From: Octopus vulgaris
Lineage: Eukaryota
DNA: 64,000 bases
Assembly: GCA_951406725.2 (NCBI GenBank)
Contig: OX597841.1
Location: 2,356,001-2,420,000, forward strand
Direction: 5' to 3'
Shown piece by piece: positions 3,258 to 35,689 of the stretch. The stretch's first letter is position 1. Each line of letters begins with the position of its first letter. The translations under genes and the position numbers were made by a program. The notes below the pieces were generated by a model that was given only the letters and a program-made list of their open reading frames with translations, was not told the origin of the DNA and ran no database searches.

Positions 3258-3625
3258 CCATAGCTAGAAATAGCAGCCAAATCTCGCACAAAATAATAGA
3301 CATCTCTCATCCATAGCTAGAAATAGCAGCCAGATATCGCACTAATCATAGACATCTCATCATCTCTCATCTATAGCTAGAAATAGCAGCCAAATCTCGC
3401 ACAAATAATAGACATCTCTCATCTATAGCTAGAAATAGCAGCCAAATCTTGCACAAATTATGGACATCTCTTCCATTGCTAGAAATAGCAGCCAAATCTG
3501 GCACGAAACATAGTGATTTCTCTTCCATAACTAGAAATAGCAACCAGATCTCGCTCAAATCATAGATAACTCTCTTCCATAGCTAGAAATGGCAGCTAAA
3601 TCTTGTACAATACATAGACATCTCT
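3258..3625. repeat. 52-bp minisatellite, about 7 units, intron 1 of ZNF copy A
   Basis: Core CATAGCTAGAAATAGCAGCCA recurring at about 52-bp spacing. Confidence 0.95.
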
Positions 3626-3810
3626 GATACATAAAAAATTGGAGAAAAACAGCCAATCGAAAAGTCAAATACTGAACGTCTACTGATGAAATACTCACGG
3701 AAAAGTTTCATAGGGGATAACGTTGTTATAAGTGGATTTGTAATAGATGAGAAATGTATTAAAAGTTTAGGAATAGAAATTCATTCAACCAACAATTCAA
3801 TTAATGTCAA

Positions 3811-3845
3811 GACGGAAACGGAAATATATCTCGTGCGCACGCGTG
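3811..3845 (-). promoter_or_regulatory. Putative core promoter of ZNF copy A (NRF1-like TGCGCACGCG plus tandem CGGAA ETS-like sites)
   Basis: Motifs seen about 135 bp upstream of a GTGAGT donor (3698); same layout in paralogs. Confidence 0.6.
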
Positions 3846-3909
3846 GGTTTTACAGAAACCACGGTAGACAACTCTTGTTACTATCTTTCTGTTCCTGGGG
3901 ACTTCAACT

Positions 3910-4641
3910 ATAATAATAATAATAATAATAATAATAATAATAATAATAATAATAATAATAATAATGATAATAATAATAATAATGATAATAATAATAATGA
4001 TAATAATAATAATAATAATAATAATAATGATAATAATAATAATAATGATAATAATAATAATGATAATAATAATAATAATGATAATAATAATAATGATAAT
4101 AATAATAATAATAATAATAATAATGATAATAATAATAATAATAATAATAATAATAATGATAATAATAATAATAATAATAATAATAATAATAATAATGATA
4201 ATAATAATAATAATAATAATAATAATGATAATAATAATAATAATGATAATAATAATAATGATAATAATAATAATAATAATAATAATAATAATAATAATGA
4301 TAATAATAATAATAATAATAATAATAATTATAATAATGATAATAATAATAATAATGATAATAATAATAATAATAATAATAATAATAATAATAATAATGAT
4401 AATAATAATAATAATGATAATAATAATAATAATAATAATAATAATAATAATAATAATAATGATAATAATAATAATAATAATGATAATAATAATAATGATA
4501 ATAATAATAATAATAATAATAATAATGATAATAATAATAATAATAATAATAATAATAATAATGATAATAATAATAATAATAATAATAATAATAATAATAA
4601 TAATGATAATAATAATAATAATGAAAATAATAATAATAATA
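3910..4641. repeat. (AAT)n microsatellite with GAT interruptions
   Basis: Direct reading; contiguous with the 3' end of a CR1-like LINE fragment. Confidence 0.98.
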
Positions 4642-5101
4642 AAAACATTGTGTACAGTGCTCAGGTGCACTACAACTCATCTAAAGTGTATGTATAGTAC
4701 ATTGGGTAATGTACAAGCGTCAGGAAAAGAACAGTGTATGAGTCATGACATACACATATGTGTATGAGTATAGAAGTGGGGCAATCAGGTGTAGTTTCGG
4801 CGGATTTCGGAAAGCATGAGGGCCTTAAAGGATGTAGTGTCATGGCAGTCAACAACTGACGCAGGCAGTTTGTTCCATGCTTCAGCAACTCTGCGCGTGA
4901 AAAAATGTTTGCGAAAGTCATGGGAGCGGTGCTGTTTTCTGACTTTGTAGGCATGTCCACGTGTGTTGGACACATGGAGAACAAAAAGGTGTTCAGTGTT
5001 GTTGTTGGTGAGGTGGTTGATAACTTTGTGGGTGTTTACCAAGTCCATCGCCAGACGCCGGAGCTTCAGTGAATCCATGCCCAGGGAAACAAGGCGCTCT
5101 G
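4642..5101 (-). mobile_element. CR1-clade LINE 3' fragment (RT C-terminus, 3' UTR)
   Basis: ERLVSLGMDSLKLRR...TRGHAYK...RKHFFTRRVAEAWNKLP; copies at about 12597-13055 and 19218-19676. Confidence 0.8.
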
Positions 5102-5214
5102 AGAAAAACGTCAGACGTATAAAATATTCTAAAAACTTCTTGAATGAACAGTCTATGTCCCTCAGTAGATTGTCCTGCAGGGACTTCCAGTTGTCCAATA
5201 TGCTATACATCTCT

Positions 5215-32721: not shown

Positions 32722-32988
32722 GTTTTTGGACTCGATGTTTCCATTAGTTCACTCTGTTTACCTCCCTTGATGTTTCATGTCGGTCTTTACGTCGCCCGTA
32801 TTGAGTGCGTCTCATTATAGCATCTCTGGGTTAAATTTCTAGAAGACATCTTTACTGTGCAAATTAAAAGCACACATGTAGACATGAATATATATACAGA
32901 CACATTCATGCAGTACATGCATAAGTAGTATATATTTACAGATATATATATATATATATACTTTATTTTAAGCAGCAGAAAATTCAAC

Positions 32989-33036
32989 AAAATCTGTTAC
33001 TCTGAGTTTCTCGTTGCCGTTCATCAGACAGTTTTT
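32989..33036 (-). ncRNA. Minimal type I hammerhead ribozyme-like motif
   Basis: ctgt-CTGATGA-acggcaacga-GAAA-ctcagag-TA-acag; closing pair of stem II mismatched. Confidence 0.55.
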
Positions 33037-33154
33037 GCTAGCAAAAACTGCTTAAAATAAAGCATATTACTCTACCCCTGGTATCTGAGTACTCTTTTTT
33101 CCACCTTGTTTCACATTTATGTGTTTACTCCGGTATATATATATATATATACTC

Positions 33155-33543
33155 TCTCTTTTACTTTTACTTGTTTCAGTCATTTGACTGCGGCCATGCT
33201 GGAGCACCGCCTTTAGTCGAGCAGATCGACCCCGGAACTTATTCTTTTGTAAGCCCAGTACTTATTCAATCGGTCTCTTGTGCCGAACCGCTAAGTTACG
33301 GGGACGTAAACATACCAGCATCGGTTGTCAAGCAATGCTAGGGGACAAACACACACACACATATATATATATACATATATACGACAGGCTTCTTCAGTTT
33401 CCGTCTACCAAATCCACTCACAAGGCATTGGTCGGCCCGGGGCTATAGCAGAAGACACTTGCCCAAGATGCCACGCAGTGGGACTGAACCCGGAACCATA
33501 TGGTTGGTTAGCAAGCTACTTACCACACAGCCACTCCTGCGCC
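33155..33543 (-). mobile_element. SINE family A
   Basis: Full head-to-tail similarity to 8062-8475. Confidence 0.85.
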
Positions 33544-34043
33544 TATGTATAATATTTATATATTATTTTTTTAGGGAATAAAAATTCCGGGATCTTTGAT
33601 TTTAGCTCAATAGAGGCAATAGGATTGGTTAAAATTCGAAAACGTAGCTTAATTCGAAAAATTAAGCTACGTTAAACTTACAAATTACAATTTTCTCAAG
33701 AAAGCCAAGAGAAAAAAAAATGTGGAATCCAATGTGGATCCCAACAAATATCTTACAAACTATAGAATTTTCTCAATAAAGCCAAGAGAAAAAGATGTTT
33801 TATAAACACATTCTACCAGTATACGAAGTTTAAAAGTGTTTAGTTAACTAGAAATTGTGTTAAAAATCTGCCGGTCAAAGCGAAAAGATCCAAATAAAGT
33901 TTGCCTTTCACCTTTTTGCTGGGGTTCAATAAAATAAATACCAGTTAACAACTGAGGTCCGCGGTAATCGACTTACGCACCCTCCCCTCCCCCGAAATTG
34001 CTGGCATTGTGCCAAAATGTGAATATCTCACACCTATTACATA

Positions 34044-34072
34044 CGCATGCGCACTAAGCCTATTTCCGCTTC
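34044..34072 (+). promoter_or_regulatory. NRF1-like site CGCATGCGCA plus TTTCCG, putative promoter of ZNF 37660-38775
   Basis: Motif; GTAAGT donor at 34207; acceptor TTATTTCAG ending 37300. Confidence 0.6.
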
Positions 34073-35689
34073 TATTCATTACATCTTGACAAGCTTTGTT
34101 TGGCGCCAGAATTTCTATTAATTCACTCGGCAATACATTTATAAAACATTTCTCTACCACCTGACGCACTCATAACAACGACACCATCTTTTATAAAGAC
34201 ATTTCCGTAAGTATTAAACAATGAAAACATTTAATCTTTCAATAATTCGTGTATCAGATTTTGTTCCACATTTAGCTGCTATTTCTAGCTATGGTGGTTA
34301 CCTTCTACTCTCTCCATCGTTTCCTCTTAAGTTTGTTGGGTATTTTAGTTGGAGAAATATTCCCAAATACTCTACAACCCCAGAAATGTTGAGAAACGAA
34401 TGTTTTATTATAATTTATCGAATGTTCGTTTCTTGGTATCGGGAAGGGGAAGAAATAAGTAAGCGGGGCAAAATGAGTAATTTCTTATTATTTTCTTACC
34501 ATTATGACATTGGTTAGAAAGATTTCAACTGAAATCATTGTAGGTTTTAGCCAGAATTATTCTAAAGGACATTTCAGAACTCTTCTGGAAACTTCCGTGG
34601 GATGTTATAAAATCCTGGGCTTTTTTTCCGATTTTTACTTAGTGAATCGCTTGCTTTCTGGAAGCTACTCACTCCCACATACAGTTCTTGTTGTAAAATT
34701 AAAGATACCCGACGTTGCTTTCCTCCATAATGACCAAAAGTCATAAAGGTATAAACTTGAAGAAAGAAAGCCTTGCATATTCGTTCTACACCCGTTTCAT
34801 GTGTGTATGTAAAATCCGCAAATTTCCAAACAGAATCGAACTGTCATTTGCTTCCACGGAAATATCCGAAGTGAAATGGTTTGACTTTTGTCGAGTTATA
34901 TCGAAGGAATGCCGTCATAAGTCTTGTACTAGCTTCAGATTTGTTTGAATGAAACTGAGAGGTGCTTTAATTCTTGTCATCTCTGTGGGACGTAGCTTTC
35001 AGACCGGAATTTAGGGCCGCCTTCCCGTTTAATCACATAGTTCTTTATTGACGAATGGAAATTACTCTCCAGTATTTATATGGAATTGAATTTGGTAAAA
35101 TGAACGAGAACCAAATGAAAATATCTTTGGAATTGACGCTTTAATACGTCTCCAGGAAAGGTATTTGACCGCTCTTGTCATTTTATCAAGAGCAAGTAGT
35201 AAAAGAAATCAGTTTTAAGTGAAAAAATGTTTCCGAAAGTCATGGGAGCTGTGCTGTTTTCTGATTTTGTAAATATGCCGACAGGTGGAGTTTGAAAAGG
35301 GGCTCAGAGTTATTGTTAATGAGATGGTTAATAATTTTATGGGTGTCTGCATATGCAGTAATGTACAAATGTCTGGGAAGTGAACAGTGTATGAGTCAGA
35401 TACATGCTTGCGTGTGTATGGAGGGGAGAAAATCAGGTGTAGTGTTGACGAATCTCAGAAAGCATGGAAGTTTTGAAGGATGCAGTGCTCCAACAACTAA
35501 CAACTGATGCCGGCAGTTTGTTCCATGCTTCAGCAACTCTCAGCGTGAAAAAATGTTTCCTAAAGTCATGGGAGCTGTGCTGTTTTCTGACTTTGTAAAT
35601 ATGTCCACGGGTGTTAGACAGGTGGAGTTCAAAAAGGGGCTCAGAGTTATTGTTTGTAAGATGGTTAAATGAAGGGCACATGTCAATCC

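Follow-up and report, generated by a model that had tools for sequence, protein, structure and literature searches.

The beta-satellite of the 19p12 ZNF cluster is reportedly a repeat that was co-amplified with that cluster, as Eichler is said to have described in 1998, and satellite repeats of 70–90 bp have reportedly been noted with C2H2 clusters in the 2015 octopus genome paper. In mouse, pieces of transposable elements (TEs) co-duplicate with ZNF clusters and ERVs are found in KZFP clusters (10.1101/2025.02.26.640358, available part). As far as that part goes, the repeat described here resembles these ERVs in being a founder-unit repeat multiplied by segmental ZNF duplication; unlike them and the 19p12 beta-satellite, it is a small minisatellite on the sense strand whose site, close to the promoter, is fixed. 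DTC84 of Donax trunculus, a tandem-repeat-bearing MITE of a mollusc (PMC3879986), and MITE-derived satellites (PMC8268682) are also related systems. According to the available portions of these papers, the octopus repeat is like them in its short arrays of variable copy number, in its ordered unit variants, fixed edge units and small palindrome near the unit junction, and in its occurrence in a mollusc, where it is related to a non-autonomous DNA transposon; in contrast, no TIR pair encloses its 52-bp units, which occupy a single orthologous position in the intron and have spread by gene duplication, not by transposition. DTC84-type inverted repeats and target-site duplications were not found around the arrays, whose flanks are unlike the TIR element region tested and represent homologous intron sequence between paralogs. 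With human minisatellite eQTLs (PMC8096271) and the binding of ZNF91 on the SVA VNTR (PMC8015857), as described in the parts of these reports at hand, the octopus repeat shares a promoter-proximal position, a variable length, a conserved core and a candidate multimerised site, whereas its observed variation is between paralogs, and a binding factor or an expression effect would be hypothetical. No description of the 52-bp repeat was found in the literature at hand; the satellites of the 2015 octopus genome paper might include it.

The window, a stretch of 64,000 nucleotides of Octopus vulgaris DNA analysed as a whole, contains an intronic minisatellite with a 52-bp unit in the predicted first introns of six neighbouring C2H2-ZNF genes (G1–G6). 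A 26-nt search of the window gave 74 matches, compared with 0 by chance, and a scan with the 21-nt core identified 77 cores, which fall into six clusters of 7, 15, 8, 12, 34 and 1 (G1–G6), all on the sense strand relative to the adjoining ZNF ORF and with the first core starting 101, 101, 117, 101, 127 and 67 nt, respectively, downstream of the predicted GT donor. The units are arranged head to tail with a period of 52 in five arrays, within the 7–100 bp of minisatellites/VNTRs, and copy number differs across homologous loci (7, 12 and 15 in paralogs that are 99% identical). The arrays and their genes are as follows.

3258..3628, minus strand: G1 array of 7 units, in predicted intron 3698..2648
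837-2249: ZNF ORF of G1, with 15 fingers and the stop inside the last finger
11280..12056, minus strand: G2 array of 15 units, in predicted intron 12126..10669; ORF 8864-10270
17409..17811, minus strand: G3 array of 8 units, one a 41-nt deleted unit, in predicted intron 17897..17153; ORF 14588-16822
20012..20067, plus strand: 5′ flank of the G4 array, faintly resembling a decayed extra unit, as also in G1, G2, G3 and G5
20068..20693, plus strand: G4 array of 12 units with a two-unit alternation, in predicted intron 19998..21304; ORF 21701-23023
30730..32501, minus strand: G5 array of 34 units, about 96% alike, in predicted intron 32597..30066; ORF 28641-29714
34243..34294, plus strand: lone shortened unit of G6, in predicted intron 34207..37300; ORF 37660-38775

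The G6 core (34274-34294) is 20/21 identical. The seventh intact ZNF gene (57231-58787) carries no array in the 4.9 kb upstream of its acceptor, where the best core match (16/21) falls within a palindrome. The preliminary description had placed the same element on the sense strand beside the first donor of six ZNF genes, and this arrangement is confirmed with the donors as predictions: none is supported by a splice joint among the 15 listed of 1506 joints. No match was obtained in a protein search with an open frame of the G1 array, and an exact look-up of five ZNF proteins found none of them. Core matches in metagenome, viral and prokaryote collections (0, 0, 1, 4 and 1 stretches) were treated as chance; stretch L001 has the pattern alone in common with the core, and four of the other five are titled bacterial.

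The reading favoured here, with a probability of roughly 0.55, is that of a transposon-related intronic minisatellite that was inherited through gene duplication and in which slippage and unequal exchange let the number of units drift; the repeat has probably long been a passenger, duplicated together with the ZNF genes. The position common to the six genes represents one inherited event, not six. Outside the arrays, G1, G2 and G4 are 99.0–99.4% alike, and within them units 1–3 are mutual nearest units in preserved order and the last unit is common too; the three arrays (7, 15 and 12 units) are recent duplicates of one already multimeric array. The earlier proposal that each array expanded independently from a monomer finds no support in view of this shared order and flank likeness. 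The downstream flank of the monomer had likewise been said to match those of the arrays, which holds for G1, G2 and G4 (83% over 82 nt) but not for G3 and G5, which have other 3′ flanks. From the likeness of the flanks and a rate of 0.0036/My (quoted in PMC13282606), the counts of G1, G4 and G2 would have diverged to 7, 12 and 15 within roughly 1 My.

The history likely began with one entry of the unit into the predicted first intron of a gene ancestral to this ZNF subfamily, after which gene duplication would have carried the repeat into every paralog. The repeat was multimeric before G1, G2 and G4 split, as their common units show, and its common start point and decayed edge unit suggest that it was likely multimeric before G3 and G5 split as well. 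This edge unit is the 5′ flank, which looks like a decayed extra unit in global alignments with the unit (P 0.005 for G1, 0.08 for G3, 0.024 for G4 and 0.016 for G5; local alignments, P 0.01–0.41). Copy number would then have shifted gene by gene via slippage and unequal exchange, to which the two-unit alternation of G4 (unit distances of 5.8 at lag 2 vs 8.9 at lag 1), the block that recurs nine units apart in G5 (distances lowest at lag 9) and the deleted units point; the single unit of G6 may be what is left of a collapsed array. The likeness of units across genes would mostly reflect exchange between the family's many arrays, with mild selection on the core as a possible aid. The number of variants shared between lineages (10 vs 6.3–7.6 expected, P 0.05–0.17) does not establish such exchange. 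Copy number is most likely drifting, not tuning expression.

The passenger reading is supported by kinship of the unit to a transposon in the same window, for which the relevant features are as follows.

50408..51377, no strand assigned: non-autonomous TIR element, arms about 184 nt and 89% alike (outer 109 nt, 98%)
51131..51208, plus strand: segment homologous to about 1.4 unit periods (core, non-core and the start of the next core), extending into the right TIR at its inner end
18554-18685, 33651-33894 and 51531-51584: additional TIR pieces
63746..63861, no strand assigned: perfect 116-bp palindrome, each arm with a 16/17 match to the core, marginal in that 2/60 shuffles reach it

A whole period of the unit aligns with 51131-51208, with 54 of 69 paired columns identical and a score of 55 vs 34.5±3.2, which was reached by 0/150 shuffled queries and 0/120 shuffled windows. 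The core is the best-kept part of the alignment (20/23), and the non-core part alone gives P=0.003. As compared at the sequence level, the unit shares ancestry with a segment of this non-autonomous, TIR-bounded transposon located 17 kb away, a kinship that is new here. DNA run X3 is rich in the TIR family, with a summed depth of 1.5–2.3 million on the piece at 33.6–33.9 kb (long single contigs, 37–310). The 3′ flank of G3 also resembles the TIR element weakly (P 0.025 in one of 24 tests), a likeness that was discounted. That the core might be a TE remnant had been named at the outset as an objection to a regulatory role; this is partly borne out by the homology to the transposon.

Cores are exact in 55 of the 77 units, and differences from the consensus affect 3.2% of sites in the core and 11.1% in the remainder (39 distinct ungapped units), in agreement with the original account of a near-invariant core and a variable remainder. 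Among four paralog lineages, about 0.16–0.21 changes per site deep, 20–21 of the 21 core positions are kept vs 70–77% of the flanks, so that conservation beyond the flanks was likewise borne out, together with position and strand. The cores of the last units are 20–21/21 identical in all six lineage pairs, and the core is preserved to the same degree as the acceptor region; both observations count against the passenger reading. Of 5071 flank windows that exclude the acceptor, just 15 attain 20 matches and none attains 21. Within arrays, the core carries about half the mutation events (16 on 21 sites vs 46 on 31; post-hoc P 0.048 and 0.019, and P=0.11 without CpG columns), in counts that leave out 14 of the 77 units with gaps or indel shifts, including the monomer, whose core retention by itself is not significant (P 0.10–0.16). 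The core is conserved beyond neutral flanks between lineages and modestly so within arrays, to which conversion may contribute. A decamer that is presumed to resemble the MEF2 motif is intact in 67 of the 77 units. The well-kept 21-base core might bind a protein.

Co-option of the unit is considered somewhat unlikely; the core would then be bound by a sequence-specific factor, perhaps a ZNF of the cluster with an affinity for the transposon as well, and the length of the array would set a repressor or activator dose by the ZNF promoter as family feedback. The core's retention across the four lineages and as the best-kept part relative to the transposon is in favour of co-option, as is the start of the arrays about 200–270 nt downstream of a promoter motif that is confined to these genes in the window. 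This motif, which is taken to be NRF1-like, lies 123–163 nt upstream of all six donors (19864..19872 on the plus strand, 134 nt upstream of the G4 donor; the others at 3843, 12271, 18040, 32720 and 34044), and its 7 matches in the window all fall at those six places. However, drift is equally compatible with 7, 12 and 15 units in paralogs that are 99% identical and with the overall range of 1 to 34, and cores decay at the edges (1.56 differences per unit in units 1–3 of G1, G2 and G4 vs 0.36 elsewhere). In the parts of the literature available, the ZNFs examined for predicted binding to TEs include octopus ones (PMC10547256), and octopus C2H2 paralogs are spread over different expression modules (PMC12513265); for ZNF91, binding to a VNTR carried by a TE is described, and expression of the ZNF cluster rises on its loss, but its presence at promoters has no collective effect on expression (PMC8015857). 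A copy-number-tuned landing pad for ZNF proteins as such is unlikely, and it is more doubtful still that the array is a multimerised transposon recognition sequence beside the promoter, through which the ZNFs silencing the transposon would hold down their own family too and the number of units (1 to 34) would determine how sensitive each gene is.

The direction of transfer could be reversed: the unit would have arisen in a ZNF intron as a native minisatellite, functional or not, and one TIR element would have captured a piece of an array. A whole period is present in only one transposon copy in the window and no TIR remnant flanks the arrays, which would fit transfer in either direction. In the transposon segment, a core, the non-core part and a second, partial core keep the register of the arrays, and the TIR piece at 33.6 kb has only a short part of this segment. 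However, the second partial core sits in the inner end of the TIR and has counterparts in the left arm, suggesting that it is native to the element, and a further core-like match occurs in the unrelated palindrome; reversal is distinctly unlikely.

It is very improbable that the unit works as RNA (a hairpin, an alternative acceptor, a source of small RNA or an editing partner of the finger-coding exon), since its strict sense orientation directly after the donor is explained by inheritance and its folding is no better than that of shuffles. Six unit-bearing stretches gave z values of −0.87 to +0.58, which lends no support to the hairpin noted in the preliminary description; the sole fold signal came from a 3′ flank (z −2.26). 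A search of Rfam gave no match, and no assignment as miRNA hairpin, snoRNA or ribozyme resulted. In the RNA-like run X14, the unit bin reaches about 11% of exon level vs 4% for the 3′ part of the intron (scaled by DNA run X3), but the AG of the arrays is preceded by 14–15 pyrimidines in 25 nt vs 18–20 at real acceptors (18 in the monomer), a weaker tract. Among the 15 listed of 1506 joints, none ends at the core AG; joints and loose ends in the runs are dominated by SINEs. Of the four runs, X17 is DNA-like in appearance and X22 barely matches (120 reads, 0 on the unit), and no RNA run containing the sequence was found among those on record. Contigs from the runs that align to the unit are short and cover two units, and their depths do not rank the genes by expression. 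A joint at 32453-34270 in X17, X14 and X3 is ambiguous, though it would fit arrays of at least two units in the samples concerned. A duplex of the unit with the G4 coding exon was equalled by 24/100 shuffles and was rejected, and a likeness of the antisense core to the Cas9 guide-scaffold tetraloop, in connection with which two papers on CRISPR vectors came up, was judged a coincidence.

Some 1,800 C2H2 genes are present in octopus, for which repeat-borne binding sites are named as a next step (PMC12513265, available part). The repeat offers a concrete family-wide candidate site that also occurs in a transposon and whose dose differs up to 34-fold from one neighbouring gene to the next, a range that makes it easy to test. 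If the array does act as a transposon recognition sequence, it would represent a built-in, copy-number-tuned transposon sensor outside vertebrates; if the repeat is a passenger only, it would still serve as a marker for dating ZNF duplications and as a likely substrate for intra-cluster exchange.

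The window contains seven long poly-C2H2 open reading frames encoding 11–25 fingers each (G1–G7). Octopus proteins are the only named matches covering the non-finger N-terminus of G5 (93–100% of residues 1–55), and the start of the G6 protein shows 72% identity to an O. vulgaris protein, which indicates an octopus ZNF cluster. Each gene has a single coding exon preceded by a conserved acceptor, and in G1–G6 a GT donor is predicted 67–127 nt above the first core, the well-kept 21-nt part of the 52-bp repeat unit. A GC-rich motif, which we take to be of the NRF1 type, was identified 123–163 nt above all six predicted donors (7/7 matches there) and nowhere else in the window; this placement supports a short non-coding first exon, so that the genes would probably consist of such an exon followed by the coding one, and the six sites may represent a common core promoter of the ZNF subfamily.

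Features of the gene cluster
39700–40510: broken finger-repeat run downstream of G6, with SINE and other insertions in between
3835–3843, 12263–12271, 18032–18040, 19864–19872, 32713–32721 and 34044–34052: GC-rich NRF1-like motif

In the RNA-like read run X14, depth rises from ~30 at 37250–37268 to 446 at 37353, spanning the predicted G6 acceptor at 37301; the 15 joints listed of 1506 include no splice joint, at the predicted donors or elsewhere. Exon 2 of G1–G7 has a long 5′ part (~330–410 nt; 21305–21700 in G4) before the reading frame, opened in G1–G6 by a short upstream ATG, and its first 20 nt together with the last 30 intron bases are 88–96% alike across lineages (lineage A, comprising G1, G2 and G4, and the single genes G3, G5 and G6). 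A stop lies inside the last finger of G1 (762–837), where G2 and G4 read through. No array was found within 4.9 kb above the acceptor of G7, the first exon of which may lie beyond the window.

The copy numbers and orientation given in the preliminary description were confirmed: 77 cores are present in the predicted first introns of G1–G6 (7, 15, 8, 12, 34 and 1, respectively), all on the sense strand of these genes. The repeat is real and apparently undescribed; no description was found in the literature, by topic or by sequence, and further PMC9115989 supplements and the O. vulgaris repeat library could contain it. The proposal that every array expanded independently from a monomer does not hold. 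G1, G2 and G4 are related by one tandem and one inverted duplication and are 99.0–99.4% alike outside the arrays, and their distinctive units 1–3 match in order; thus, the 7, 12 and 15 copies derive from one multimer, and there are four lineages rather than six events. On the rate given in PMC13282606 (0.0036 per My), if it holds here, these three counts would have diverged within roughly 1 million years, and the branches of the star-like tree of the four lineages (0.16–0.21) would correspond to about 45–57 My. The (ATA)n tract directly above the promoters of these near-identical paralogs also differs in length.

(ATA)n tracts
3910–4642: 733 bp, G1
12338–12596: 259 bp, G2
19676–19790: 115 bp, G4

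The arrays of lineage A, G3 and G5 have a common start point behind a homologous 5′ flank. In full-length alignment with the unit, this flank outscores most shuffles (P 0.005 in G1, 0.024 in G4, 0.016 in G5 and 0.08 in G3; local alignments were weaker), as would be expected of a decayed edge unit. Two unit types alternate in G4 (lag-2 distance 5.8, lag-1 8.9), and a block recurs nine units apart in G5; such patterns typically arise by slippage and unequal exchange. The G6 monomer, whose beginning resembles the first unit of the lineage A arrays, is missing some of the non-core (the remaining ~31 nt of the unit) and ~60 nt of flank; it may be a collapsed array. A 3′ flank block containing a short palindrome is 83% alike in G4 (20729–20810) and G6 (34348–34426), with fold z-scores of −2.26 and −1.16, respectively.

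The preliminary claim of a conserved core stands, and the effect is real: between lineages, cores are 92–98% alike versus 70–77% for flanks, and non-core sequences are 79–84% alike among arrays and 55–63% against the G6 monomer. Last-unit cores match at 20–21 of 21 positions in all six lineage pairs. Among 5071 windows of flank sequence, the acceptor excluded, 15 reach 20 matches and none reaches 21. Within arrays (63 of the 77 units), the core effect is two-fold, with 16 events at 21 sites versus 46 at 31 non-core sites, a post-hoc deficit with P values of 0.048 (uniform), 0.019 (permutation) and 0.11 without CpG. Core retention in the G6 monomer is by itself not significant (P 0.10–0.16), and edge units have lost core bases. 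The main alternative, which we consider rather improbable, is that the core has been co-opted as a landing pad. The factor bound there might be one of the cluster ZNFs, which would also recognize the transposon considered below, by analogy with ZNF91 and the SVA VNTR (PMC8015857) and with predicted TE binding by ZNFs (PMC10547256). Slowly changing units are predicted alike by binding-site selection and by exchange among many family arrays; lineages share 10 variants, against 6.3–7.6 expected (P 0.05–0.17), and conversion between arrays may occur.

RNA-level readings found little footing, as units fold no better than shuffles, which lends the hairpin noted earlier no support, and the pyrimidine tract before the acceptor-like core end is weaker than that of the true acceptor. 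Units have no Rfam match as a structured RNA family, their pairing with the coding exon is within chance, and the core is absent from four supplements, which may lack sequences, of the octopus microRNA paper PMC9699675.

A search of the array-masked window with a unit dimer identified one strong match (51131–51208; score 55 versus 34.5 ± 3.2), exceeding 150/150 shuffled queries and 120/120 shuffled windows. The alignment (54 matches in 80 columns, 11 of them gaps) runs from one core through the non-core into the beginning of a second core, and the non-core part matches by itself (P 0.003). This segment, homologous to the unit, lies inside a TIR element, extending into its right arm.

Inverted-repeat features
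50408–51377: TIR element whose long inverted arms are 98% complementary over their outer 109 nt
63746–63861: perfect palindrome of 116 bp next to a (TA)19 run; both arms carry a core-like 17-mer

Arm pieces of this family also occur above the G3 and G6 promoters, and the family is abundant, as indicated by a summed depth of 1.5–2.3 million for the piece at 33.6–33.9 kb in the DNA run X3. The whole-period segment is known from the one TIR element in the window, no TIR arm remnants were found adjoining the arrays, and the transfer may have gone from transposon to repeat or the other way. An X3 bin with two units has a summed depth of 144,000, ~6 times that of the acceptor bin (23,000) and more than 100 times below SINE bins, a measure that is not copy number and may leave matches as short as the core uncounted; the depth fits an association of the repeat with the ZNF family better than a SINE-like spread. 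A common octopus repeat presumably has a similar core. The core match in the palindrome is marginal (reached by 2/60 shuffles), and the palindrome itself could be explained as a fold-back element, as what is left of a G7 intron or as an artefact of assembly. Other mobile sequences include a MITE-like inverted repeat (63348–63542; 35-nt arms, 97%), Helitron ORFs (Helitron_like_N, 45373–50153) inserted between G6 and G7, and a broken hAT-like transposase (Dimer_Tnp_hAT, 54560–56242).

We favor, at a probability of about 0.55, a transposon-related passenger minisatellite. A transposon-related segment would have entered the first intron of a founder gene, become tandem and been copied along in each gene duplication; the arrays would now gain and lose units, probably neutrally in copy number, with likeness between genes maintained by exchange and perhaps also mild selection. 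Such arrays would work like MITE-related tandem arrays and the passenger repeats of ZNF clusters; the 2015 octopus genome paper reportedly linked satellite repeats to C2H2 clusters. They differ from the tandem-repeat-bearing DTC84 MITE of the mollusc Donax trunculus, as far as PMC3879986 describes it, and are not of this type because they lack enclosing arms. A passenger repeat would be ordinary; a conserved core common to a transposon and present in 1–34 copies by ZNF promoters would offer a cheap, pointed test of family control.
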